A stretch of 64,000 nucleotides of DNA from NCBI GenBank assembly GCA_964344965.1, contig CAYFPJ010000001.1, positions 86,771 through 150,770 of the forward strand. Direction: 5' to 3'. The first letter of the stretch is position 1, and each line of letters starts with the position of its first letter. Below, piece after piece: positions 2,496 to 64,000 of this stretch. A model generated the notes under the pieces. The model was not told where the DNA came from. It did no database searches and saw nothing but the letters and a program-made list of their open reading frames with translations. The translations under genes and the position numbers were made by a program. The stretch comes from an uncultured Gammaproteobacteria bacterium. GTDB taxonomy: Bacteria; Patescibacteriota; Patescibacteriia; Magasanikbacterales; UBA922.

Positions 2496-5400
2496 ATGAA
2501 TTTTGTTCACCTTCATACTCACTCTCATTATTCTCTTTTGCGTGGGTTGCCAAAAATTAAAGAGCTAGTAACCGCTGCCAAACAGAAGGGTTTTTCTGCT
2601 ATTGCACTTACAGATTATGGGGCCATGTACGGGGCAATTGAATTTTATAAAGAATGTCAAAAACAAGATATAAAGCCGATCATTGGTTTCGAGGCATACT
2701 TGGCTCCGAGAAATCATACTGACAAAGATTCACAGCATGATAAAGAATTTTCCAATTTGGTGCTACTGGCCAAAAATTATGACGGCTATCGTAACTTGAT
2801 GAAACTTTGTTCCATTTCACACCTCGATGGATTTTTTGATGGCAAGCCAAGAGTTGATAAAGATTTGTTGCGACAGTATAGCAAAGATATAATTTGTTTG
2901 TCCGGCTCTATCCTAGGAAATATTCCTCGCTTATTAAAAAATAATGATTTGGAAGGAGCAAAAAAAGAAGCTTTGGAGCTCAATGAAATTTTTGGGCCTG
3001 ATAATTTTTATCTGGAAATGCAAGATCATCCGGGAATAGAAGGTCAGCTGGATGTGAACACAAAATTGACTCAGATGTCAAAGGAAACCGGAATACCACT
3101 TGTTGTCAGTCGCAATGTTCATTATTTGGAGCCAGATCAATCTGAAGCCCAGGATGTCTTAGTCTGTATTGGTGAAGGGTGGAAGATAGGTCAGACAGAT
3201 CGTGTAGATTATCGTCACGTCGATCGGTCTCTCAATACAGGAGAGGATATTGCTTCTCGTTTTCGTCATGTGCCAGAGGCAATAGAGAACACTGTCAAGA
3301 TTGCTGACATGGTCAATATTGAAATAGAGCTAGACAAGTGGCATTTCGCGCCAGTAGATTTACCAAAAGATAAGAATGCAGATGAATTTCTTCGTGATGA
3401 GGTTTACAAATATGTAGGAAATTTTTATGATCCAGTGACAGAAGAGATAAAAGAGCGAATTGAATACGAGCTAGACATTATAAAAAACAAAGGATATTCA
3501 CCATATTTCATCTGCGTGGCAGACTATGTTCGCTATGCCAAGGATAATGGAATAGTAGAATCCACTCGTGGTTCAGCAGCAGGATCAGTAGTCTCCTATG
3601 TTCTTGGAATTACTACTGTTGATCCAATTCACTTCAAACTCCCTTTTGAACGTTTTCTAAATCCATTTCGTCCCAGTCCTCCTGATGTAGATACTGATTT
3701 TGCCGATGACCGACGAGATGAGATGATCGAGTATGTAACTAATAAATATGGTGTTGATAAAGTTGCTCAGATCATTACATTCGGATCTATGGCAGCAAGA
3801 GCTAGTGTGCGTGATGTGGGTCGGGTACTTGGTTTTTCTTATGGTTTTTGTGATCAGGTAGCTAAGCTGATTCCTATAGGAGCCCAAGGTTTTCCTATGA
3901 CAATCGAGCGTGCCCTAAAAGAAGAGCCAGATTTGAAAAAATTGTACGATACAAATGAGGACGTAAAGCGTCTCCTCGGTCTGGCCCAGCAAGTGGAAGG
4001 GTGTGCTAGACATACTTCTATTCATGCTGCTGGGGTGGTAATTTCTCCTACACCACTAACTGATTTTACCCCAGTCCAAAGAGAAACCGGGGGAGAGCGT
4101 ATTCTCACTCAGTACAGCATGTATGACGTAGAGTCTGCCGGAGTTCTGAAGAATGATTTTCTTGGGATTCGTAATCTTTCTATCCTTGGAAAGGCTGTGG
4201 AGATCGTGGAAAAAACAACAGGCGAGCGTGTCGATATTTATAACCTTCCACTCGACGATATAAAAACATATGAAATGATTTCACGCGGAGAAACAATGGG
4301 AGTATTTCAGTTTGGTAGCTCGGGGATGCAGCGGTGGATCAAAGAACTTAAGCCGACAAACATCGACGATATCATGGCTATGGTCGCACTATATCGTCCC
4401 GGGCCAATGGATTTCATTCCAGAGTATATTCGTCGCAAACACAACCCAGAAGTAATTGATTATCCGCATCCGGATATTGAAGAGATTCTTGAGAAGTCGC
4501 TCGGACTCTTGATTTATCAAGATGATATCATGCTTACGGCGATCAAGCTTGCTGGCTATGATTGGCTTGAGGCAGACAAATTTCGTAAGGCGATGGGGAA
4601 GAAAATTCCTGAGCTTATGATTGAGCAAGAGAAAAAGTTTAAGCAAGGATGTGTTGAAAATAAGATTCCAAAAGATACCGTGGAAGATTTGTGGAATCGT
4701 ATCAAACCCTTTGCATCTTACGGATTTAATAAAGCACATGCCGCAAGCTATGGCATGGTTGCATATCAGACTGCTCACATGAAGGCTCACTATCCGGTGC
4801 AGTATATGACAGCCGTCCTTCAAGCTGAGTCACATGATGCTGACAAGATTTCTGCTATTGTAGGTGAGTGTAGAAGAATAGGTATTGAAGTGCTACCACC
4901 CGATGTCAACGAAAGTTTCAAATCTTTTGCAATGATCTCAAAACCTGGCGAGAAGGGAAGAATTCGATTTGGTCTCACTGCTATCAAGAATGTGGGTGAT
5001 CATATTTGTGAAGTAATTTATCAAGAAAGAAAGAAGAATGGTCAGTACAAAAGCTTGGAAGATTTTCTTGAGAGAATAGAAGATAAAGATCTGAACAAAA
5101 AGTCAGTAGAGAGTCTAGCAAAGACTGGGGCTCTTGATTGTTTTGGAATTGATCGCGGGGTCTTGATGGCTAATAGTGAGAATATTCTCGGATTTATTCG
5201 TCAAGAAAAAGAGAGGAGACAGACAAATCAGGATTCATTATTTGCCGGGACAAGTATTGCTATTGATTCTAAAGTCAGAATTGTAGAATCAGCAGAAGCT
5301 ACAATGGATGAAAAATTGGTTTGGGAAAAAGAATTGCTTGGAATATATGTGTCTTCTCACCCGTTTGCTTATTATCAAAAGTTTTTGGGAGAAAAAATAA

Positions 5401-11243: not shown

Positions 11244-12752
11244 TTAAGATATATAATGACAACCAATACTTTTTTCTCTCTCTAGTGCAGCTTCAGTAAT
11301 AAGTATTGCTACTGTATTTAAGTTTCGGAGCTCCAGTATTTCCTGATTGATTCCATTTTTATATATTTTTTCAACTTCTTCTTTCAATTTTTTTAATTTT
11401 TCCAAACTTTTTTTCATGTCTTTTTCATTCCTAACAATCCCAACATTTTCCCACATTGTTTTTTGAATATCAATTTTTAATTTCGTAATTTGTTGAGATT
11501 GTGTAGTCTCTGAAATTTGGTGATTGGTGGTTGGAAATTTTTTGGAAATTGTATCTTGTATCTTAGTTGCATATTTTTTTGCAGAATCGACTGCTCTGGC
11601 ACTAAATACCAAGCATTCCAATAAAGAGTTCGAAGCCAAACGATTGGCTCCATGCACTCCTGTATTAGCTACTTCTCCGAAGGCGTATAGTCCATCTAAG
11701 CTTGTCTTGCCATCATAATCAGTATGAATTCCTCCACAAACATAGTGAGCTGCGGGGGCGACAGGGATCATGTCTTGATCCATTTTTATACCATGCCACC
11801 AGAGTTGTTCGTAGATATAGGGAAAACGTTTTTTTATATAATTACTTCCTTTGTGGCGGATATCTAGCAAGACATGATCGCTTTTTGTTTCAAGCATTTC
11901 TGCATAGATTGCCCTAGAGACTATGTCACGAGGAGCAAGATCTTTATCTCCATGATATTTTTGCATGAATTTTTCACCATCAATATTTTTCAAGATACCA
12001 CCTTCTCCGCGTATTGTTTCAGAAATAAGGAAAGCTGGCTTGTCTTCTAGAGCTAGGACAGTAGGGTGAAATTGAATGAACTCCATGTCACGGATTTCAG
12101 CTCCAGCTCGCGCAGCCATGGCGACTCCATCTCCAGTGGCAATTTTGGGATTACAATTTCGGGCATAAATTTGTCCTGCACCTCCAGTAGCCACGATAGT
12201 GGCTTTGGCAAAAAATTGTTGTACCACATTTTTTTCTCCATCAAAGACTAGCGCACCGATACATTTTTTATCTTCTACAATCAGTTCAAAAGCAGTGTGT
12301 GATTCGAATGTGGTGATTTTCTCACTATGTCTCACTTGATGAAGAAGAGCTCGCTCTATTTCTTTTCCTGTAGCATCGTGGACATGGGCAATCCGCTTAT
12401 TGCTATGACCTCCTTCTTGAGTCAGACAAAGCTCTCCATTTTCTCTACTAAATCCGACTCCAATATTGATCAGATGTTCGATTTGGGCTGGGGCATTTTT
12501 TACCAGCAATTCCACAGCTTTTTTATCATTGATCTGACAACCAGCTTTCATGGTATCTTCTATGTGGCTAGCAAAACTATCGTGCTTGTCAAGCACTGCA
12601 GCTATACCACCTTGGGCGTAGTTGCTGTTGCTTTCCATTAATTCTTTTTTGGTGACGATTGCTACTGTGCCATGCTTACTTATTTCCAATGCAAAATTGA
12701 GGCCAGCTATTCCAGAGCCTATTACAAGAAAGTCGAATTGAAAATTGTTCAT
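11244..12752 (-). CDS. nadB: L-aspartate oxidase
   Basis: FAD-binding GSGIAGL N-terminus and a fumarate reductase/SdhA-like flavoprotein fold; it is adjacent to nadC and nadA. Confidence 0.85.
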   Translation of the reverse strand: MNNFQFDFLVIGSGIAGLNFALEISKHGTVAIVTKKELMESNSNYAQGGIAAVLDKHDSFASHIEDTMKAGCQINDKKAVELLVKNAPAQIEHLINIGVGFSRENGELCLTQEGGHSNKRIAHVHDATGKEIERALLHQVRHSEKITTFESHTAFELIVEDKKCIGALVFDGEKNVVQQFFAKATIVATGGAGQIYARNCNPKIATGDGVAMAARAGAEIRDMEFIQFHPTVLALEDKPAFLISETIRGEGGILKNIDGEKFMQKYHGDKDLAPRDIVSRAIYAEMLETKSDHVLLDIRHKGSNYIKKRFPYIYEQLWWHGIKMDQDMIPVAPAAHYVCGGIHTDYDGKTSLDGLYAFGEVANTGVHGANRLASNSLLECLVFSARAVDSAKKYATKIQDTISKKFPTTNHQISETTQSQQITKLKIDIQKTMWENVGIVRNEKDMKKSLEKLKKLKEEVEKIYKNGINQEILELRNLNTVAILITEAALEREKSIGCHYIS

Positions 12753-12759
12753 AGTTTTT

Positions 12760-12840
12760 CATGCTGAGTAACCCCTCCGCCCTTCCACCTTCGCTAAAAC
12801 TACGGCAGACAGGGCGGGCATCTCCCCTTATAAAGGGGAG
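12760..12840. repeat. GC-rich nested hairpins (CCACCTTCGCTAAAACTACGG motif; TCCCCTT ataaa GGGGAGGA)
   Basis: Read directly. A related motif, CCACCTTCGCTAAGGCTACGGTGG, occurs at 20197-20220. Confidence 0.4.
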
Positions 12841-12845
12841 GATAG

Positions 12846-13715
12846 TCACAATATATCTAGTGAAATATCTAAAGCTTTTGTAGAATGGGTGAGGCTCCCA
12901 AGTGAGATGACATCGACACCACTCTTGGCATAGCCAGCAATATTTTTTTCATTAATTCCACCTGATGCTTCGAAAATAATATTAGTTTTGCCAATTTGCT
13001 TGAGAATTTTTCTGATATCACTTGGCTTGAAGTTGTCGAGCATGATGGCGCCGGGGTTTTGTTTTACAAATTTTAATACTTGGGATTTTGTTTTACATTC
13101 TATTTCCCAGAAAGACTTAAGACTTAAGATAGAAGATTTAAGATTTTTGTTTTTTTTGATATGATTGTCCTTTATTAAAATCCAGTCATAGAGTCCTAGT
13201 CTATGTGTTCCGCCACCACCTAAGGTTACTGCTTTTTTGTCGACTAGTCCCCATTGAGTTTTACGGGTTGGGACGATGAGGATATCTTTGCCTACTTTTT
13301 TTACTAGTTTGTTTGTTTGGGTGGTAATACCAGACATTCTTTGTAGTAAGTTTAAAATTGTCCGTTCTACTTTTAGAATATTTTTTATTCCTCCAGTTAT
13401 CTTGAGTATTTTTTCGCCTTTTTTGATCTTGCGACCATCCTTTTTGTAACTTGTAACTTGTAACTTGTAACTAGAGAGAAACCATTGTATTTCTTGGAGG
13501 CCAGCAACAATTCCATTCTCCTTGGCTTTTACAATAGCTGTCACTTTTGGATTTCCTTTTATCATTGCATCACTTGTGACGTCACCGATATTTTCAAGAT
13601 CTTCAGACAAAAAATCTGCAGTCAATCGTTTGACTTGCTCCAAGTATTTTTTATTTTTGAGAGTTAGTTTGGCTCTCTGATTAAAATACTTATATATTTT
13701 TTGTTTTTTATTCAT
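12846..13715 (-). CDS. nadC: nicotinate-nucleotide pyrophosphorylase (quinolinate phosphoribosyltransferase)
   Basis: 289-aa QPRTase family protein. It contains an in-frame (TTGTAAC)x4 tract at 13444-13471. Confidence 0.85.
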   Translation of the reverse strand: MNKKQKIYKYFNQRAKLTLKNKKYLEQVKRLTADFLSEDLENIGDVTSDAMIKGNPKVTAIVKAKENGIVAGLQEIQWFLSSYKLQVTSYKKDGRKIKKGEKILKITGGIKNILKVERTILNLLQRMSGITTQTNKLVKKVGKDILIVPTRKTQWGLVDKKAVTLGGGGTHRLGLYDWILIKDNHIKKNKNLKSSILSLKSFWEIECKTKSQVLKFVKQNPGAIMLDNFKPSDIRKILKQIGKTNIIFEASGGINEKNIAGYAKSGVDVISLGSLTHSTKALDISLDIL

Positions 13716-13729
13716 ACTGATCAGTTTTT

Positions 13730-13810
13730 ATCTGTCTAATCTGTTAGATCTGTGTTCTATTTAATTACACCATTTAGATAGAACACGGATTGAACTGATC
13801 TAACTGATTT
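13730..13810. repeat. family C palindromic element (TAGATCTGTGTTCTAT...ATAGAACACGGATT)
   Basis: Inverted repeat; related copies lie at 49760-49864 and 57841-57920. Confidence 0.6.
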
Positions 13811-13819
13811 GAACGGATT

Positions 13820-14830
13820 TTATTTACTCAGCTCCATCATGCGATCCAAAGCCAATTTTGCTTTTTGTAGAATTTCATCAGGAATATCAACAATTTGTTT
13901 TTTGTGAGGATTTTTCAGAGCCATTAGGACTTGCCCGAGATTAATCTGCTTCATGAAGGGGCAGAGCTGACAAGTGCCAACTATTTGCTTGTTTGGGAAT
14001 TCTGTCTTTACTCTATCAGTGATCCCACATTCGGTGATGAGCATGTAGTTGTCAGCTGGATTTTCTTTTACATATTTGAGCATGTCAGCTGTACTTCCGA
14101 CGAGATCTACAGCGTCAGTGACTGATGAAGTACACTCATAGTGAGCTAAGATGTGAGTTCCAGGATATTTCGTTCGTATATCATCTATGGCTTGCTTGTC
14201 AAAGCGTTCATGCACAATGCAAGTCCCATGCCAGAGGATTAATTTCTTCTTGGTTCTCTTTTGTAGATTTTCTCCCATCAGTTTGTCGGGAATGAAGATC
14301 ACTTCGTCTTCTTCAAATGATTCAATAATTTTGAGAGCATTGGAGCTGGTACAACAGACATCACTTTCAGCTTTCACTTCTGCGCTAGTGTTGACATAGG
14401 TCACTACTGGTACGCCTGGATATTTCTTTTTCAATTCTCTTACATTTTCAGCAGTAATACTCTCAGCTAGAGAACAGCCAGCGACGTCTGGGACTAGGAC
14501 TTCTTTTTCCGGACTAAGTATCTTGGCAGTTTCTCCCATGAAGTGTACCGAGCAAAAGATTATTTTTTTAGCGCTGTGTTCGGCGGCAATCTTGCTGAGA
14601 CCATAAGAATCTCCCACAAAATCAGCAATACCATACATGATATCTGGAGTTTGGTAAGAGTGGGCGAGAATGATAGCGTCTTGCTCTTTTTTGAGCTCAT
14701 TAATTTCCAGGGTCATGTGGGCTATCAAACCACAGTCTTCGAGAGACCAGTTGACGTTTTTTAGTTTTTCGTATAGTCGATTGGTTTCTGCTTTGATTTT
14801 TTCTGGTGAATATTTCATAATTTCTGTCAT
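13820..14830 (-). CDS. nadA: quinolinate synthase
   Basis: 336 aa with the cysteine-containing motifs of the NadA family. Confidence 0.88.
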   Translation of the reverse strand: MTEIMKYSPEKIKAETNRLYEKLKNVNWSLEDCGLIAHMTLEINELKKEQDAIILAHSYQTPDIMYGIADFVGDSYGLSKIAAEHSAKKIIFCSVHFMGETAKILSPEKEVLVPDVAGCSLAESITAENVRELKKKYPGVPVVTYVNTSAEVKAESDVCCTSSNALKIIESFEEDEVIFIPDKLMGENLQKRTKKKLILWHGTCIVHERFDKQAIDDIRTKYPGTHILAHYECTSSVTDAVDLVGSTADMLKYVKENPADNYMLITECGITDRVKTEFPNKQIVGTCQLCPFMKQINLGQVLMALKNPHKKQIVDIPDEILQKAKLALDRMMELSK

Positions 14831-14907
14831 TCTGAACGAAGTGAAGAATCTTTCTTAAGTTGTTTTTTATTTGTAAATAATATAGTGGTTTAAAAGGTTC
14901 TTGGTAG

Positions 14908-14936
14908 AAAAGATCCTTCGCTACGCTCAGGATGAC
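14908..14936. repeat. family B half element (AGATCCTTCGCTACGCTCAGGATGAC)
   Basis: A single arm of the family B palindrome. Confidence 0.5.
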
Positions 14937-15403
14937 AATTCTAGGCTATTCTTTTTAGTCCATGGTGCATGTTGTTGCCATAATGAGTTATTATTTTTTA
15001 TCATCTTACGCAGTTCTGTTCCAGAAATATTAATATTAATCTTAATCTTTTTTACATTATATCCTTTTTCTTCAAACAAACCCGCTACCCATTCATTACC
15101 AGTATAGACTACATCAAAACTTCCAACGATCTTCACCACATGGTCGATCCAATTTTTTTCGTCATGAATATCTGGAATGGCAAGTATTTTGTAATTTAAA
15201 TTTTGATCTTGAAGAGATTTTTCAATCATTTCTTTTCTTTCTTCAAAAGTCCAGGGATTTTCATCAGTATCGCTATACTGTGAACTACCAACTCCAATAA
15301 TTATTTCGTCTTCTGAAATTTGTTTCAAGGCATCGAGGTGGCCGAGATGGAAGGGTTGGAAGCGGCCGATGAAGAGGACTTTTTGCATAGACACAGATTG
15401 CAC
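14927..15403 (-). CDS. nicotinamide/nicotinate mononucleotide adenylyltransferase, archaeal NadM-like
   Basis: 158 aa with a FIGRFQPFHLGH nucleotidyltransferase motif; it sits inside the NAD biosynthesis operon. Confidence 0.75.
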   Translation of the reverse strand: MQSVSMQKVLFIGRFQPFHLGHLDALKQISEDEIIIGVGSSQYSDTDENPWTFEERKEMIEKSLQDQNLNYKILAIPDIHDEKNWIDHVVKIVGSFDVVYTGNEWVAGLFEEKGYNVKKIKININISGTELRKMIKNNNSLWQQHAPWTKKNSLELSS

Positions 15404-15418
15404 AGATTTTTACGGATT

Positions 15419-16159
15419 TCACAGATCACAGATTGGAGCTGTAGTATTTTTGTGAGTTGAATTTTTCATCATCTCTTTTACCTTCTCTACATCTGCACTT
15501 TCAAATCCATCCAAACTAGCATCATCCTCAATCGCTTTCAAAATTTTATCAAGCACTTCGTACGTTATTCCAATCTCTTCTTCATCAGTCTGACCTTCCC
15601 ATAGTCCTGCAGTCGGCGGTCGGTCAATTATCTCTTGAGGAACACCAATATGTTTTGCCAGTTCGCGTTCTTCTGTTTTGTAAAGATCTCCGATAGGTAA
15701 GAGGTCCACTCCACCATCACCATATTTTGTAAAGTAACCAATCATCAATTCTGTTTTATTTCCTGTACCGAGTACTATCCCGCCGATCTCATTTGCCTCA
15801 CCATAAAGGAGCGACATTCGGATCCGGGCTTTGAGGTTACCGGTTGAATATTGGGAGCTGTAGAGATTGTTGGTAGATTTTTGGAATGCCTCTAACATTG
15901 GTTCTATACTGAATACATAAGACTTAAGATTTAAGATTTTTGCCACACGTTTGGCAAGTTCGAGATCTTCCGAAGTGTTGCTGTCAGAAGGGGACATGAT
16001 AACATGGACTTTATCGGCTCCGAGGGCTTCGGTAGCAAGAAAAGCTACGACAGATGAGTCGATTCCGCCACTTAGGCCGATTACTACTGGTTTGTCACCG
16101 ACGTGGTGTTTTATAAATTGGATAATTTTGTCTTTTGTCTGATCCATAGAAATTGGCAT
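15419..16159 (-). CDS. nadE: NH3-dependent NAD+ synthetase
   Basis: VVIGLSGGIDSSVVAFLA PP-loop motif; 246 aa. Confidence 0.88.
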   Translation of the reverse strand: MPISMDQTKDKIIQFIKHHVGDKPVVIGLSGGIDSSVVAFLATEALGADKVHVIMSPSDSNTSEDLELAKRVAKILNLKSYVFSIEPMLEAFQKSTNNLYSSQYSTGNLKARIRMSLLYGEANEIGGIVLGTGNKTELMIGYFTKYGDGGVDLLPIGDLYKTEERELAKHIGVPQEIIDRPPTAGLWEGQTDEEEIGITYEVLDKILKAIEDDASLDGFESADVEKVKEMMKNSTHKNTTAPICDL

Positions 16160-16307: not shown

Positions 16308-16379
16308 GGCCCCATCGTCTAGTGGTTAGGACACCAGGTTTTCATCCTGGGAACAGGGGTTCGATTCCCCTTGGGGCTA
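16308..16379 (+). tRNA. tRNA-Glu (anticodon UUC)
   Basis: Cloverleaf folded by hand: acceptor GGCCCCA / TGGGGCT, anticodon stem CCAGG / CCTGG with loop TTTTCAT, T-arm GGGG TTCGATT CCCC. The 5' end resembles E. coli tRNA-Glu. Confidence 0.85.
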
Positions 16380-16496
16380 CGAAACACAAAGAGGTCTTGC
16401 CAAAACAAGATTTTTTTGTTTTCATTAAGCTAAAACTATAGAGTTCCATTTTTTGTAATGGAATTTTTTTAAAAGGGCAACATAAAACGATTCTTA

Positions 16497-16532
16497 CGCC
16501 CAACTTAGCAAAATACAGGGTTCGATTCCCCT
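16497..16532 (+). pseudogene. chimeric tRNA remnant (5' part like tRNA-Thr GCCAACTTAGC, T-arm like tRNA-Glu CAGGGTTCGATTCCCCT)
   Basis: Read directly; it cannot fold into a complete cloverleaf. Confidence 0.45.
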
Positions 16533-16545
16533 AAACTTTTTTTCT

Positions 16546-18696
16546 ATGTCTTTTCTGAATAGAGAACAACGTATTGATTTGTTTATGTCTCTTTTTACCG
16601 GACGTGAAGACGTGTATGCCTACCGTTGGGAAAGTAGGGGCGGAAAGAAAGGGTATGCTCCCGCGTACGCAGATAGTAACAAAAAACAATATATCCCTTT
16701 CACTAAAAATGTTGTAGAGCAACACCTCTTGGGGAATCAAACAATTGGGGTATACCCATTTCTCACATATAATACATCTAGATTTGTCGTAGCGGATTTT
16801 GATACACCGGACTGTCTGAATTTGCTAAAAAGACTGATAGAAGTATGTAGAGAACGTGGAATAGAGACTTACATTGAGCGATCTCAGTCAGGTAGCGGAT
16901 TTCACGCGTGGTGGTTTTTTGAACAAGCGTATCCTGCATACAAATCACGAAAGATATTTCTTACCCTTCTCAAAAATGCAGGAATCATAGATCAATTTGA
17001 TAAAACGGAAAGTTTTGATCGATTATTTCCCAACCAAGATTATCTTTCAGGTAAAGGGTTGGGTAATTTGATTGCTCTGCCATTGCAAGGTAGCTCAAGA
17101 AAAAGAGGTGCCACTGTATTTCTCGACCCTGAGAATGATTTTCGAGTAGCCAAAGATCAATGGGGATTGCTCCAAGGGATAAAACGCATATCTATGGAGA
17201 CATTGGATAAACTATTTGAGATATCCACACAAAATAGGGATTATTTCATTGAGAATGACACAACAATGTTAGACGCAGATACCGGAAGTGTCCCAATTAC
17301 AATATCGACTCATATTGTTATTCCTAAAAAAGCTGTATCAAAAAATTTTGCGAATTTTCTTTCAGATCATTTACATTTTTTCAATACAGAATACGCGGTC
17401 AAACAAAAGATGGGGCTGTCGACGCATAATACGGAACGATTCTTCAATACAATTGAAAAGTCTGATGAACATATTTTCCTCCCAAGAGGTTTCTTCTCAA
17501 AATTTACTTCTTTTCTTGGAGAAAATAATATCCCGTACACTATTCGTGATGCGAGAATAGAATTTGATTCTCCGACAAAGGTTTCATTATCGTGTCCTCT
17601 CTTTGTATATCAAGAGAAAGCAGTACATGCTTGCCTTTCACAAGATACAGGTATTCTTGTTGCCCCTCCGGGATCTGGAAAGACAATCATGGGTTTGTCT
17701 CTCGTCGCAGCCAGGAAACAACCGAGCTTGATTATCACTCACAGAAAACAAATTTATGAGCAATGGTTAGAACGTATCGAACAATTCATGGGAATATCTA
17801 AAAAGAACATTGGACAAATCACATCTACAAAGAAGGTTATACGATCTCCAATTACTGTCGCTACGATTCAGACACTTGCTCGGATGGTAGATACGATAAA
17901 AGACGAGATGGCCACACATTTTGGATGTATTATTGTTGATGAATGCCATCATATCCCTGCAAAAATGTTCAGACGTGTCATTACCCAGCTCAGCCCGAAA
18001 TATCTCTATGGACTTACCGCAACACCAATGCGCAAACATAATGACGAAAGACTAATGTTTTTGTATCTAGGAGAAAACATATATGAAGTCTCAAAGGAGG
18101 ATATAAAACAAAATAGCTCCAAAGATTCATCTGATGTGAAAATTTATGTTCAAGAAACTGAATTATCTTTTCCATTTACCGTTCACACGAGAAATTATCA
18201 GACTGTGTCAAAAATGCTTATTGCCGATACCAAGAGAAATGAACAAATCATTGCCGACGTGACTTCGGAAATTGAACAAGGTAAGAAGTGTTTGTTGCTC
18301 ACAGAACGGAAGGAACACGTAAAGATATTCCAGCTGTATCTTGGTAAAAAATATGAAACCATCACGCTCACCGGTGGAGAAAGGATTATGAAGAGAAAAC
18401 AGAAGATTGAACAGATCAAAAGTGGTCATTTTCAGGTGATTATTGCGACCGGACAGTACATAGGAGAGGGTATGCATTTTGACGATCTGGATTCGTTGTT
18501 TCTGGTATATCCGTGTTCATTTAGTGGAAAATTGACGCAATATATTGGCAGAGTATTACACAGCGATAATAGTTCAAAGAATGTATATGATTATAGAGAC
18601 AGCGACATTCCTTATTTCGAGAGGATGTTCAAAAAGAGGAAAAAATATTATGAAAAAGAGTATGGAGGTAATAGTAATATGAGAACATTGCTATGA
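16546..18696 (+). CDS. PrimPol (archaeo-eukaryotic-type primase-polymerase) domain fused to an SF2 DEAD/DEAH-box helicase
   Basis: N-terminal PrimPol motifs VVADFDTPD (DxD) and SQSGSGFHAWWFF. The helicase carries Walker A APPGSGKT, DECHH, TATPMR and a C-terminal QYIGRVLH motif VI. Confidence 0.75.
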   Translation: MSFLNREQRIDLFMSLFTGREDVYAYRWESRGGKKGYAPAYADSNKKQYIPFTKNVVEQHLLGNQTIGVYPFLTYNTSRFVVADFDTPDCLNLLKRLIEVCRERGIETYIERSQSGSGFHAWWFFEQAYPAYKSRKIFLTLLKNAGIIDQFDKTESFDRLFPNQDYLSGKGLGNLIALPLQGSSRKRGATVFLDPENDFRVAKDQWGLLQGIKRISMETLDKLFEISTQNRDYFIENDTTMLDADTGSVPITISTHIVIPKKAVSKNFANFLSDHLHFFNTEYAVKQKMGLSTHNTERFFNTIEKSDEHIFLPRGFFSKFTSFLGENNIPYTIRDARIEFDSPTKVSLSCPLFVYQEKAVHACLSQDTGILVAPPGSGKTIMGLSLVAARKQPSLIITHRKQIYEQWLERIEQFMGISKKNIGQITSTKKVIRSPITVATIQTLARMVDTIKDEMATHFGCIIVDECHHIPAKMFRRVITQLSPKYLYGLTATPMRKHNDERLMFLYLGENIYEVSKEDIKQNSSKDSSDVKIYVQETELSFPFTVHTRNYQTVSKMLIADTKRNEQIIADVTSEIEQGKKCLLLTERKEHVKIFQLYLGKKYETITLTGGERIMKRKQKIEQIKSGHFQVIIATGQYIGEGMHFDDLDSLFLVYPCSFSGKLTQYIGRVLHSDNSSKNVYDYRDSDIPYFERMFKKRKKYYEKEYGGNSNMRTLL

Positions 18697-18770
18697 TCGG
18701 CTTGTCATTTTTTTCAGATATCCACAGTGATATATCACATTTTTTTTAATTTTGTGATATATTTACAGGG

Positions 18771-19901
18771 ATGTATCATATTCTGCTATATATCAAATAT
18801 ATGCCAAAAACATTCAATCCAACAACTCCATATACACCTCCCACGCTTCCTCCCAAAGATATCAAGGCAATTGAGGCAGCATTAAGCGAACAGATCATGG
18901 AGGCGCGTATAGCCCTCGCTGAACTCAAAGGGTTTAGTGTGGCTGTGCCCAACCCATTATTACTTTTGTCTCCCGCCATCTTGCGTGAATCATTGGCCAG
19001 TTCTGAAATTGAGAATATTCACACAACGTTGATTGATGTCTTGGAAAACCAGTTGTTTCCTGAACGGGAGCAGCGAGAAAAAGACAAAGAAGTTTTGCGT
19101 TATCGTGATGCTATTCTTTGGGGCTTCGAACAAGTAGAAAAATTGGCTGTCTCAACCAGATTGATTCATGGAGTGCATCACAAATTGATGCCTACCATAC
19201 ACAGAGGTTATCGCTCACAGCAAAATACTATTGCTGATGGAGCAGGTCGAGCAATATATACCCCACCTACTGTACCCGTAATGAAAGAGTGTATGAGCGC
19301 ATGGGAAACGTTTGTGAATGATGACAAGCAATCAGTTGATCCTTTGGTAAAAGCCATTCTTGGGCATTATCAATTTGAATCAATCCATCCGTTTCCTGAT
19401 GGAAATGGCAGAACAGGACGTATTTTAATGATTTTAGAATTGATCCAAGATCGAATTCTTATCTGGCCAATTTTGTATATCAGCGGCTACATCAACACGC
19501 ATAAGAGGGAGTATTACTCGTCCCTTATCAATGTAACTAAGAAAAATGACTGGATAAGCTATATTCGTTTTATGTTGGTTGGATTTGCTGACCAAGCAAA
19601 AGAAACCAAAGATGTATTGCAATCTATTATGACGCTCTTTGATGCGTACAAAAAAGAATTAAAGGAAAAGAAAACACGGGTGTATTCCGCTGATTTGGTA
19701 GAGTCGCTATTTACATATCCAATTATCACCCCCACAAAATTGAGTGAGTCTCTCAATATCCATTATACTACTGCCACGAGACATCTTGAGGTACTCAAGA
19801 AGTTAACACTCTTGGAGGAGAAGAAAGTTGGAAAGTACCGATTTTTTATCAATGTCAAATTACTTGAGGTATTATCCCCGAAGAAAGCAAAGAAGAATTG
19901 A
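18771..19901 (+). CDS. Fic/Doc family protein (putative AMP-transferase) with N-terminal inhibitory SxxxEN motif
   Basis: Canonical Fic motif HPFPDGNGRTGR. SSEIEN matches the [ST]xxxE[GN] inhibitory helix of class II Fic proteins. The C-terminus is wHTH-like. Confidence 0.8.
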   Translation: MYHILLYIKYMPKTFNPTTPYTPPTLPPKDIKAIEAALSEQIMEARIALAELKGFSVAVPNPLLLLSPAILRESLASSEIENIHTTLIDVLENQLFPEREQREKDKEVLRYRDAILWGFEQVEKLAVSTRLIHGVHHKLMPTIHRGYRSQQNTIADGAGRAIYTPPTVPVMKECMSAWETFVNDDKQSVDPLVKAILGHYQFESIHPFPDGNGRTGRILMILELIQDRILIWPILYISGYINTHKREYYSSLINVTKKNDWISYIRFMLVGFADQAKETKDVLQSIMTLFDAYKKELKEKKTRVYSADLVESLFTYPIITPTKLSESLNIHYTTATRHLEVLKKLTLLEEKKVGKYRFFINVKLLEVLSPKKAKKN

Positions 19902-20079
19902 TATTTTTTGAAAAAACACGTACACGTATTTCCATTCCAGATCATTCATCTAACCAAACCCGGAAGATAAAAATTGGCTCCACAGCCGCATTTCTTCCAC
20001 AAAAAGGTTCCAATGGTCAGTGGAGTGGTCTACACGGTAGACACCAATGTATGATGTACTTTAAGTGTATTTGAGAACA

Positions 20080-20107
20080 GAAGGGTTCTCCGCCCAAGGC
20101 GGACCCG
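20080..20107. terminator. GC-rich hairpin CCGCCCAAGGCGG acc CGCCTTGGGCGG abutting the att-like repeat
   Basis: The arms are a perfect reverse complement. Confidence 0.4.
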
Positions 20108-20126
20108 CCTTGGGCGGGGATTCCCC
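20106..20126 (+). repeat. direct repeat of the tRNA-Glu 3' end (putative attR)
   Basis: GGGGATTCCCCTTGGGGCTAC versus tRNA 3' GGGGTTCGATTCCCCTTGGGGCTAC; it differs only by a 4-nt deletion. Confidence 0.6.
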
Positions 20127-20139
20127 TTGGGGCTACTAG

Positions 20140-20442
20140 CTTGCTTGCTTGCTTGACAAATCTATTATAGAATGGTATTATCAAGCTCACCATAGACAGC
20201 AGCCCACCTTCGCTAAGGCTACGGTGGATAAGGCTCGATCCAATCGATGCCAAGTCCCATCTAGACCGAAAGGTGATAATATACCAGACTGCCGAGGTTA
20301 TTTACTCCGAATTTTCCAAATTTTTATAATTTGGTGATCGTAGAGAGGTCGAAAATAACAAGAAGTTCTGTGGTCAAACCACAGTTTTTTATTTTATAGC
20401 AATTGTCTATGAACTATTGGCTAAGAACTAAATAAATAAATT
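20140..20442 (+). promoter_or_regulatory. probable ribosomal protein L10 (rplJ) autoregulatory leader
   Basis: A roughly 300-nt structured untranslated region directly upstream of rplJ. The position is conserved for the L10 leader, but the motif itself could not be verified. Confidence 0.35.
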
Positions 20443-26133: not shown

Positions 26134-26382
26134 ATGCGCAAAACAGCCATCATCACTACATCTTTGCCTCACAGTATGGTCAAAAAAGTCAACAAAGCCG
26201 CCAAAAAGCAGCACATGACTCGCTCTGAATTATTGCGTCAAGCACTAAGACAGTACTTTGAATGGCAAGATGTTGACGAGGCAATTCGTATCGCAGAAGA
26301 AGAGAAAGCGGCTGGAAAATTGAAAACTTTGCCAGAAGGGGGTCTGGCAACCCTAATGGAGGAAGCACATGCAACAAATTAA
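26134..26382 (+). CDS. ribbon-helix-helix (CopG/ParD-like) antitoxin
   Basis: 82 aa; MTRSELLRQALRQYFE is RHH-like. It overlaps the downstream toxin by 14 nt. Confidence 0.6.
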   Translation: MRKTAIITTSLPHSMVKKVNKAAKKQHMTRSELLRQALRQYFEWQDVDEAIRIAEEEKAAGKLKTLPEGGLATLMEEAHATN

Positions 26383-26638
26383 AAACATTCTTTATTCTTC
26401 GCACTTCAAACGTTCACTCAAAAAAATTCCTCTCAAATTAATTTCTATTGTTGAAAAAAGAGAAATTTTGTTTCGAAAAAATTGTTTTGATCATAAACTG
26501 CGAACGCACAAATTGAAAGGTAAAAAACCAGCCCTCTGGTCTTTCTCTGTTACTTCAAGTCACAGAGTTCTGTTTCAATTTATTGATAACGAAACAGTAT
26601 TGTTTATGGAGATTGGCGACCACTCCATTTACAAATAA
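26369..26638 (+). CDS. RelE/YafQ-family mRNA interferase toxin
   Basis: 89 aa, with a C-terminal WSFSVTSSHRVLFQFIDNETVLFMEIGDHSIY RelE/YafQ signature. Confidence 0.6.
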   Translation: MQQIKNILYSSHFKRSLKKIPLKLISIVEKREILFRKNCFDHKLRTHKLKGKKPALWSFSVTSSHRVLFQFIDNETVLFMEIGDHSIYK

Positions 26639-63678: not shown

Positions 63679-63706
63679 AAAAACCCCTCATAACGAGGGG
63701 TTTTTA
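63679..63706. terminator. bidirectional terminator AAAAACCCCTC ataa CGAGGGGTTTTT
   Basis: Perfect stem flanked by A and T runs, between convergent genes. Confidence 0.7.
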
Positions 63707-63716
63707 TTTCTTCTTC

Positions 63717-64000
63717 TTATTTTTCTTGCCGCCAGTTGCCTTATATCCTTTTTTTGGCTTGTCAGCTACCACTAGGCCATGCTGACTGAGAATATTCTCT
63801 AGAGTGTTATAAATATTACTTCTTTCTTCCTTTTTTATTTTTTCGTGGTCCGCCTTTCTCTTTTTTGTTTTACTGTCTTGAATCAGTTCTTCCCACAGTT
63901 CAAAATCTTCGGCAGAAGCCAGTGCTATTTTTGGCTTGCCGTGCTCTGTAAGAATGTATACTACTTTTTTATTTTTTACCTCTTCAGATATCTCAAATAT
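63717..64000 (-). CDS. Phd/YefM-like antitoxin-family protein, partial (5' end beyond the window)
   Basis: Minus-strand translation ...VVYILTEHGKPKIALASAEDFELWEEL...GGKKNK* with stop at 63717-63719. The core is YefM/Phd-like. Confidence 0.4.

Follow-up and report, generated by a model that had tools for sequence, protein, structure and literature searches.

SoFic, the Shewanella oneidensis protein SO_4266 or MloA (PDB 3EQX and 3ZCN), is the protein on which class II of the Fic enzymes was defined. It has been described as a single-gene anti-phage system: wild-type EcSofic is toxic, its toxicity requires the catalytic histidine, dimerisation, and the C-terminal domain, and AS1, a 47-amino-acid protein that is encoded downstream, counteracts it (PMC12249575). 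Also, in bacterial MAGs from groundwater, SoFIC is within the five commonest defence families (PMC12259885). Another study reported that SoFic both AMPylates and de-AMPylates switch I of EF-Tu, with the AMPylation depending on the dimer and the de-AMPylation depending on the inhibitory glutamate, and that the SoFic dimer binds its own promoter, in the 100 bp that lie directly before the gene; these authors proposed a dual regulatory function (bioRxiv 10.64898/2026.07.09.737422). The SoFic papers do not choose between a protein that is primarily a defence toxin and one that is a regulator of translation and transcription. The defence phenotype was shown in E. coli with enterobacterial and Shewanella-type proteins rather than in Patescibacteria.

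In the 64-kb stretch of DNA that we analysed (the window), an ORF of 376 codons runs from 18771 to 19901 on the plus strand, as had been described. The gene most likely starts at the ATG at 18801 and encodes 366 amino acids, because a database gene call (P0001, 366 amino acids) and all of the homologues begin with M-x-FNP and because a promoter-like -10 lies at 18774-18779. The gene (18801-19901, plus strand) encodes a class II Fic AMP-transferase of the SoFic family. The active site claimed for it in the preliminary description is HPFPDGNGRTGR (19386-19421, plus strand; residues 206-217, with the catalytic histidine at H206, or H196 in the 366-aa numbering), which is the only match to HxFx[DE]GN[GK]RxxR in the protein. 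Similarly, the proposed class II inhibitory motif SSEIEN (18999-19016, plus strand; residues 77-82) is the only match to [ST]xxxE[GN], and its glutamate, E81 (E71 in the 366-aa numbering), aligns with E73 of SoFic and E70 of EcSofic. That glutamate lies 125 residues before the catalytic histidine, as against the roughly 100 residues that were first given.

Both motifs are well conserved: among the 120 homologues listed, 115 keep the inhibitory motif and 119 keep the catalytic one. In an alignment of 33 sequences, the invariant columns (366-aa numbering) are S67, S68, E71, H196 to R207, and Y238/Y239, so the whole of HPFPDGNGRTGR is invariant. Within these columns, E71, H196, R204, and Y239 align with E73/E70, H198/H194, R206/R202, and Y241/Y237 of SoFic/EcSofic, which bind ATP or are needed for catalysis or toxicity (PMC12249575). 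The loss of a motif upon careful alignment had been named as grounds for giving up the assignment. Both motifs hold in the alignment of homologues, and they are not chance matches.

An HMM search, as had been proposed, finds three Pfam domains. The Fic_N region (PF13784, 3e-21; 18891-19130, plus strand; residues 41-120 of the 376-aa ORF) includes a predicted dimerisation helix and the predicted inhibitory helix. It is followed by the Fic core domain (PF02661, 6e-17; 19152-19439, plus strand; residues 128-223) and by a C-terminal winged helix-turn-helix (wHTH), SoFic-like_C (PF21248, 6e-13; 19635-19862, plus strand; residues 289-364). This last region had been noticed as wHTH-like from the sequence; it also has a weak match to an ArsR-type HTH, and the secondary structure of the model agrees, with helices at 311-318 and 322-334 and a beta hairpin at 339-350. 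The AlphaFold monomer model, for which 33 homologues were the input, has a mean pLDDT of 91.3, and it superimposes on SoFic (3ZCN) with a TM score of 0.90 and an rmsd of 2.2 A over 361 columns. Near its N-terminus the model has helices at 29-48 and 52-70 (366-aa numbering), and the first of these, which is long, is predicted at high confidence. According to DSSP, S67 to I70 close the second predicted helix, while E71 and N72 (366-aa numbering) are just past its end.

Comparisons with sequences and profiles lead to the same family. Against PDB sequences, the best phmmer match is to EcSofic (9vjc, 8e-59), and the SoFic entries (3eqx, 3zcn, and 9tc*) follow at about 1e-55, with residues 15-369 aligned. 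(The 9vjc chain has an alanine at the position of the catalytic histidine, which is consistent with the EcSofic H194A mutant of PMC12249575.) The PADLOC model for SoFic scores 341.5 bits (1.7e-102) and is covered from 6 to 359 of its 361 positions. The NCBIfam equivalog model for SoFic (NF046030) gives 271.4 bits, which is below its cut-off of 550, so we call the protein a member of the SoFic family and not a proven functional equivalent. In structure-based alignments, it is about 33-35% identical to SoFic, and given this level of identity, its target and its regulation could differ from those of SoFic. Family membership, the conserved motifs, and the fold are shown by these comparisons: the product is homologous over its full length to SoFic, the archetype of class II. 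The idea of a class II Fic protein with a built-in inhibitory helix was thus correct, while the protein is less novel than had been assumed: the SoFic family has already been characterised and is very common. Among the candidates that we scored, more than 6,300 proteins reach E <= 1e-20. The family is common in Patescibacteria, Margulisbacteria, and Chloroflexi, and SoFic-like genes abound on plasmids, where 171 matches are near full length, and in viral contigs, where at least 488 stretches match, as would fit a foreign origin of the gene.

Between the stop codon of the upstream gene, which encodes a PrimPol-helicase, and the ATG at 18801 there are 104 nt. This region holds a candidate promoter and operator (18727-18795), in which promoter-like hexamers are overlapped by four TGATATAT/ATATATCA copies, the palindrome GTGATATATCAC among them; the promoter-like sites are at 18734-18763 and 18752-18779. 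These four copies fall within 68 nt, and the 64-kb window has 10 copies on both strands, as compared with about 3 expected. The TGATATAT repeats sit in A+T-rich DNA. Since the SoFic dimer binds its own promoter, we infer by analogy that the repeats are a candidate autoregulatory operator. We found no terminator-like site between the PrimPol-helicase gene and the Fic gene, so transcription may also run on from the helicase gene into the Fic gene.

The two genes are the only genes of a small islet next to a tRNA gene. An intact tRNA-Glu (UUC) gene lies at 16308-16380 (plus strand), and its last 18 nt (16363-16380), the left direct repeat or attL core, recur exactly at 20119-20136, when 0.02 such recurrences would be expected. 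The islet of 3,756 bp (16381-20136) begins with the first base past the tRNA and includes the right repeat as its last 18 nt, and it is missing from related genomes. Its right end is a degenerate tRNA-Glu-like copy (20009-20136, plus strand) whose last part is the right repeat (attR core 20119-20136). The stretch of 110 nt that precedes this repeat aligns to the tRNA with a score of 37.8, versus 23 +/- 3.7 for shuffled sequences, and the T loop of the copy is split by a G+C-rich hairpin of 30 nt (about 20087-20120). Such a copy is the remnant to be expected from an attP of tRNA origin on the element. We considered whether a functional tRNA or tmRNA lies at this boundary and rejected it, as ARAGORN and Rfam report nothing there and the copy is degenerate, with insertions. 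A third, partial copy of the T arm of tRNA-Glu (15 nt; 16518-16532, plus strand) lies 14 nt before the start of the PrimPol-helicase gene and is possibly the scar of an older insertion. Past the islet is the native promoter of rplJ (TTGACA-17-TATTAT) with an L10-leader-like region (20153-20442, plus strand), which the insertion has separated from the tRNA. We searched for an integrase with five recombinases (phmmer) and found no such ORF in the islet or in the 64-kb window. Base composition is not a sign of foreign origin here: the G+C content of the islet is 0.37-0.39, the same as in its flanks.

Related genomes show what the site looks like without the islet. Exact matches to the L10 and NadE proteins are found only in contigs of the same strain, and each of these contigs ends at the tRNA. 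Using NadE homologues of 65-66% identity, we located two syntenic relatives (L206 and L207), and these share with the window a series of genes for a 748-aa protein, L7/L12, L10, tRNA-Glu, NadE, NadD/A, NadC, NadB, and TsaD. In these two relatives, tRNA-Glu is identical to that of the window at 68/73 and 63/73 positions. The spacing from nadE to rplJ is 306 nt in L206 and 491 nt in L207, versus 4,283 nt in the window, and the rplJ promoter and leader come directly after tRNA-Glu (14 nt past it in L206 and about 60 nt in L207). If positions 16381-20136 are removed, then the window aligns collinearly with both relatives, with 83% identity over aligned positions. A third relative, which is named Candidatus Magasanikbacteria and whose NadE is 75% identical, also has neither gene beside tRNA-Glu. 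Because of the empty sites and the exact 18-bp repeat, we conclude that 3,756 bp of foreign DNA were inserted at the 3' end of the tRNA-Glu gene, and the alignments make both the insertion and its limits plain. The islet had been described as mobile, and a repeat-bounded insertion with two empty sites demonstrates this for its past; as it has no integrase, it may no longer be mobile. We also considered whether the Fic protein might belong to a housekeeping family that is conserved in all relatives. All three relatives lack the gene at this locus, and its nearest homologues (55-59% identity, from three contexts) are beside aconitase, beside phosphoglycerate mutase, or beside an integrase and YdjM; these contexts, including that of the 59% identical homologues, are unrelated to this one. 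Therefore the Fic gene is accessory.

A truncated ORF at the far end of the window (63704-64000, minus strand) had been described as a partial Phd/YefM-like gene. The ORF is present, but the family match is below threshold: PF02604 scores 23.1 bits, versus a gathering score of 29.8. The gene at 18771-19901 is the only Fic/Doc-like ORF in the 64-kb window, and we found no Doc in it. The suggestion of cross-talk in trans between the Fic protein and this fragment has no support, as class II proteins are inhibited in cis and Phd partners with Doc. We also rejected a Doc/Phd module. The Phd-like fragment is sub-threshold, lies 44 kb from the Fic gene, and has no toxin beside it, which counts against both ideas.

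The other gene of the islet (16546-18696, plus strand) encodes a protein of 716 amino acids, which the preliminary description had correctly identified as a PrimPol-helicase: it has an AEP-TOTE primase-polymerase domain (4e-73) and matches SF2/ResIII helicases. We analysed a sample of 91 loci with homologues of this helicase (32-66% identical), of which 67 have a visible upstream gene. (A scan of genome contigs with the single protein yielded 3 loci only.) In 7 of the 67, a Fic gene is immediately upstream on the same strand (loci L026, L039, L045, L050, L083, L094, and L123), with gaps to the helicase gene of about 3 to 290 nt. By comparison, just 2 of about 566 other ORFs encode Fic proteins, so there is an enrichment of about 30-fold (odds ratio 33, Fisher p = 3e-6). 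Downstream of the helicase homologues, Fic genes are found in 0 of 65 loci. Other upstream neighbours of the helicases include AbiEii (5), AlbA_2-HATPase_c_4 (3), HipA, and AbiV. The preliminary description was right about the neighbour itself and missed that the pairing recurs.

The G+C content of the paired loci ranges from 34% to 65%. All of the Fic partners have the inhibitory [ST]xxxE[GN] motif, all but that of L041 (HPYVDGNGRTAR) have the strict Fic motif, and at least 6 have a C-terminal HTH according to Pfam. The partners represent at least 4 subfamilies, and the identities of the Fic proteins and of the helicases are uncorrelated (rho 0.09). For example, the Fic proteins of L094 and L039 are 74% identical while their helicases are 42% identical, and between the window and L123, the helicases are 56% identical and the Fic proteins 32%. 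Some of the pairs lie at tRNA genes or next to integrases: L045 has the order tRNA-Arg, integrase, Fic, helicase; L050 has integrase, Fic, helicase, and a DUF3375 (Wadjet-like) gene; and L123 adjoins tRNA-Lys and tRNA-Arg, and a tRNA 3' end is duplicated there. From the Fic side, the association is not seen: the helicase is within 5 kb of SoFic-like genes in 0 of 80 loci from viral contigs and is beside the nearest Fic homologues in 0 of the 3 contexts. The PrimPol-helicase behaves as a stand-alone gene that often has a toxin gene upstream. In our reading, it serves in conflict or as an accessory gene on its own, and a toxin-regulator gene frequently comes to lie upstream of it. Most of the pairing pattern would follow from both genes residing in integration hot spots. 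We tried two other identities for the helicase gene and rejected both. It does not seem to be a phage gene, with 2 full-length matches in 2.9 million viral contigs, nor a plasmid replicase, as the plasmid copies are in accessory regions amid toxin-antitoxin genes and IS elements. Plasmid copies are also found near integrases.

Putting these results together, our preferred reading, to which we would give a probability of about 0.6, is that the islet carries an intact, autoregulated, and self-contained toxin of the SoFic family, which probably acts in abortive infection and which travels with the PrimPol-helicase on an element at tRNA-Glu. By analogy with SoFic, we infer its enzymatic activity, EF-Tu as its target, its binding to the promoter, and its role in defence. 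On this reading, the N-terminal helix would dimerise and run into the inhibitory helix, with E81 held over the ATP site, and the Fic core carries the full HPFxDGNGRxGR catalytic loop. The C-terminal winged helix probably binds the TGATATAT repeats of its own promoter. If the homology to SoFic extends to function, then the enzyme would AMPylate and de-AMPylate a translation GTPase such as EF-Tu; phage infection would switch it on, translation would stop, and the infection would be aborted. As to how it arrived, it was cargo, alongside the PrimPol-helicase gene, of a 3.76-kb element that integrated at the 3' end of tRNA-Glu. The host genome was of a Patescibacteria (Magasanikbacteria-like) type, and the element has either lost its own integrase since then or never had one.

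Addiction and abortive infection had been proposed side by side for this gene. Abortive infection matches the published function of SoFic (PMC12249575), while we keep addiction as a weak rival, under which the Fic gene would be a toxin-antitoxin-like module that chiefly stabilises the islet and would not be anti-phage. The inserted element that carries the Fic gene has nothing else to maintain it, which would suit this idea, as would the toxicity of wild-type EcSofic and the small antitoxin AS1 encoded downstream of it (PMC12249575). But when we looked downstream of the Fic gene for an AS1-like small antitoxin, we found just a 58-aa ORF with a TTG start, which has no family match and overlaps the tRNA-like remnant. 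It had been suggested that relatives be checked for antitoxin homologues next to the gene, and the loci of the nearest homologues have no conserved small neighbour. Furthermore, with the inhibitor in cis, a cell that loses the gene loses toxin and inhibitor at once, and there would be no post-segregational killing. We consider addiction quite improbable. We are less dismissive of a chiefly regulatory role, in which the protein would be a reversible AMPylase and deAMPylase of EF-Tu, or a CccR-like transcription factor, or both, and would tune translation or dormancy without any part in phage defence. SoFic is an efficient deAMPylase that binds its own promoter and for which a dual role was proposed (bioRxiv 10.64898/2026.07.09.737422); here too there is a candidate operator upstream, and all of the Fic partners of the helicase have HTH domains (at least 6 by Pfam). 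On the other hand, the patchy, horizontal distribution of the gene and its absence at this locus in relatives fit an accessory conflict gene better, and members of the family have been reported to act against phages (PMC12249575, PMC12259885). A purely regulatory role seems unlikely to us.

It is also conceivable that the Fic protein and the PrimPol-helicase form one conflict system with two genes, in which the helicase-primase senses or acts on the invader and the Fic-wHTH protein is the toxin effector, the controller, or both. The enrichment of Fic genes directly upstream of the helicase argues for this, as does the range of G+C content over which pairs occur with the inhibitory motif kept and the subfamilies shuffled. 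Also, other upstream neighbours are toxins (AbiEii, HipA, AbiV), and the AEP domain belongs to a Pfam family that was defined on predicted conflict systems. However, 90% of the helicase loci have no Fic gene, the helicase is missing from the surroundings of the SoFic-like genes and of the nearest homologues, and in the literature SoFic alone suffices for defence. The order of the genes in the window is the reverse of that in the other loci, and the Fic gene comes with a promoter-like region of its own. Co-residence of the two genes in integration hot spots or defence islands could produce this pattern too, as illustrated by the DUF3375 gene in L050 and by the toxin-antitoxin genes and IS elements around the plasmid copies. 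A division of labour within a two-gene system is therefore something that we doubt. A broader version would be that the Fic-wHTH gene and the gene for an AEP-TOTE PrimPol with SF2 helicase make up a recurrent modular cassette that crosses phyla, exchanges partners, and is often found at a tRNA or an integrase, and that its two products work as one conflict system (for instance, with the helicase-primase as sensor and a translation-blocking AMPylase coupled to it), with the copy in the window being circularly permuted. On that account, the downstream position of the Fic gene in the window is simply a different cut point of a circular two-gene element. We view this version as speculative, and we continue to favour the self-contained toxin.

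Whichever reading is right, the Fic protein belongs to a family that is very common and already characterised, and it is largely ordinary. It adds one SoFic-type defence gene to the Patescibacteria, which were already known to carry many. The islet shows, in clean form, a tiny element of two genes and no integrase at a tRNA gene, with empty sites in relatives. If the pairing of a Fic-wHTH protein with a stand-alone PrimPol-helicase is functional, then it would offer a testable partner and a testable phenotype for the widespread and uncharacterised AEP-TOTE helicases. Only the demonstrated islet and the pairing of Fic with the PrimPol-helicase are worth following up.

How does the islet compare with known systems? 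The N-terminus of its PrimPol-helicase shares the AEP-TOTE Pfam match with the TOTE conflict systems; according to PMC12458937, TOTE stands for TPR, OB, TBP, and Effector. We rejected a canonical TOTE system, as the neighbours in the window are tRNA-Glu, nadE, Fic, and rplJ, with no TPR-OB or TBP gene. Such genes are also absent from the 25 families that were most often matched by upstream neighbours in the 67 homologous loci. The Doc protein of the Doc/Phd system (phage P1) belongs to the Fido superfamily, like the Fic protein of the islet. Doc is a kinase; its Fido fold is incomplete, and Phd complements it. In contrast, the islet protein has a complete Fic fold and the GNGR motif of AMP-transferases. 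Doc likewise targets EF-Tu (bioRxiv 10.64898/2026.07.09.737422).

The class I pairs, such as VbhT/VbhA and FicT/FicA, have the same Fic catalytic motif as the islet protein. They use the same principle of an inhibitory glutamate as class II does. In class I, a small antitoxin of its own carries the inhibitory helix, whereas in the islet it is on the same polypeptide and there is no small partner ORF (the class scheme is summarised in PMC12249575 and PMC3667792). We rejected a class I toxin-antitoxin pair for this locus because the Fic protein holds the motif in cis and we found no small ORF beside it with a match to any family. CccR of Yersinia pseudotuberculosis and other Fic-wHTH transcriptional regulators combine a Fic domain with a C-terminal wHTH, as the islet protein does, and regulators of this type are dimeric and autoregulated by binding to their promoters (bioRxiv 10.64898/2026.07.09.737422). 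The best matches by both sequence and fold are SoFic and EcSofic. The islet protein differs from these two in its sequence (about 33-35% identity and a score below the NCBIfam equivalog cut-off), in its Patescibacteria-type host, and in its location beside a PrimPol-helicase on a tRNA-Glu islet; also, unlike EcSofic, it has no AS1-like small gene downstream. What it shares with SoFic and EcSofic (9VJC) is the three-part architecture, with a predicted dimer helix and the inhibitory helix at the N-terminus, a Fic core, and a wHTH. Its SSEIEN is identical to their inhibitory motif, and the catalytic loop is canonical in both.

At 20009-20136, a degenerate sequence that resembles tRNA-Glu leads up to the islet's right repeat. 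Its T loop is interrupted by a perfect 14-bp hairpin (about 20087-20120), which is rich in G+C, in contrast to the A+T-rich remainder of the genome. The whole stretch (20009-20136) is predicted to fold more strongly than shuffled sequences do (z = -3.4). There is also a third copy of the tRNA-Glu T arm, of 15 nt, at 16518-16532, and it ends 14 nt 5' of the start of the PrimPol-helicase. Similarly, at L123, which is another locus with a PrimPol-helicase homologue, the 3' end of a tRNA-Lys is repeated as a 22-nt copy at 3760-3781, 139 nt past that tRNA. These partial copies may be scars that older insertions left at the same hot spots.

The region beyond the right repeat (20153-20442) begins 16 nt past it with a near-consensus promoter (TTGACA-17-TATTAT, with a TG). 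The sequence 3' of this promoter matches the L10 leader weakly, at 27.5 bits versus a gathering score of 44. The region shares with relatives the blocks CCATAGACAGCAG, CTGCCGAGG, and GGTCGAA, as well as a CTGTGGT...ACCACAG hairpin, and it may be a divergent L10 leader of the Patescibacteria. On the other side of the islet, a NAD synthesis cluster that looks complete (nadB, nadC, nadA, a nadD-like gene, and nadE; 11244-16159, minus strand) has kept its gene order in three related genomes. The nadD-like gene and nadA are fused into a single ORF in L206 and L207, which are corresponding regions without the islet.

Farther along, at 26134-26638, two small overlapping genes encode an 82-aa antitoxin of the RHH/CopG type (PF01402, 1e-8) and an 89-aa protein with sub-threshold matches to RelE/YafQ/HigB-like toxins. 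This pair is probably a type II toxin-antitoxin module that is unrelated to the Fic gene. The Phd/YefM-like fragment at 63704-64000 (minus strand) has a long C-terminal tail that is rich in lysine. After the fragment comes a strong hairpin terminator, not a toxin gene.

Some homologues of the PrimPol-helicase are about 1,000-1,100 aa long (at loci L026, L032, L036, and L037, and the database proteins P0178, P0180, P0206, and P0234), with roughly 300-400 additional C-terminal residues; in L026, this region had no match in Pfam. Across the loci with homologues (L011-L123), the genes directly upstream include Fic (7), AbiEii (5), AlbA_2 with HATPase_c_4 (3), and HipA and HEPN-AbiV (one locus each). 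About a quarter of these upstream genes overall are of toxin or abortive-infection types. A high-G+C cassette at L045 (3901-9166) contains, in order, tRNA-Arg, a tyrosine integrase, Fic, and the PrimPol-helicase. Another high-G+C cassette, at L050 (110-12153), runs from an integrase through Fic, the PrimPol-helicase, and DUF3375 (similar to JetA of Wadjet) to three large ORFs, and this set of genes looks like a defence island.
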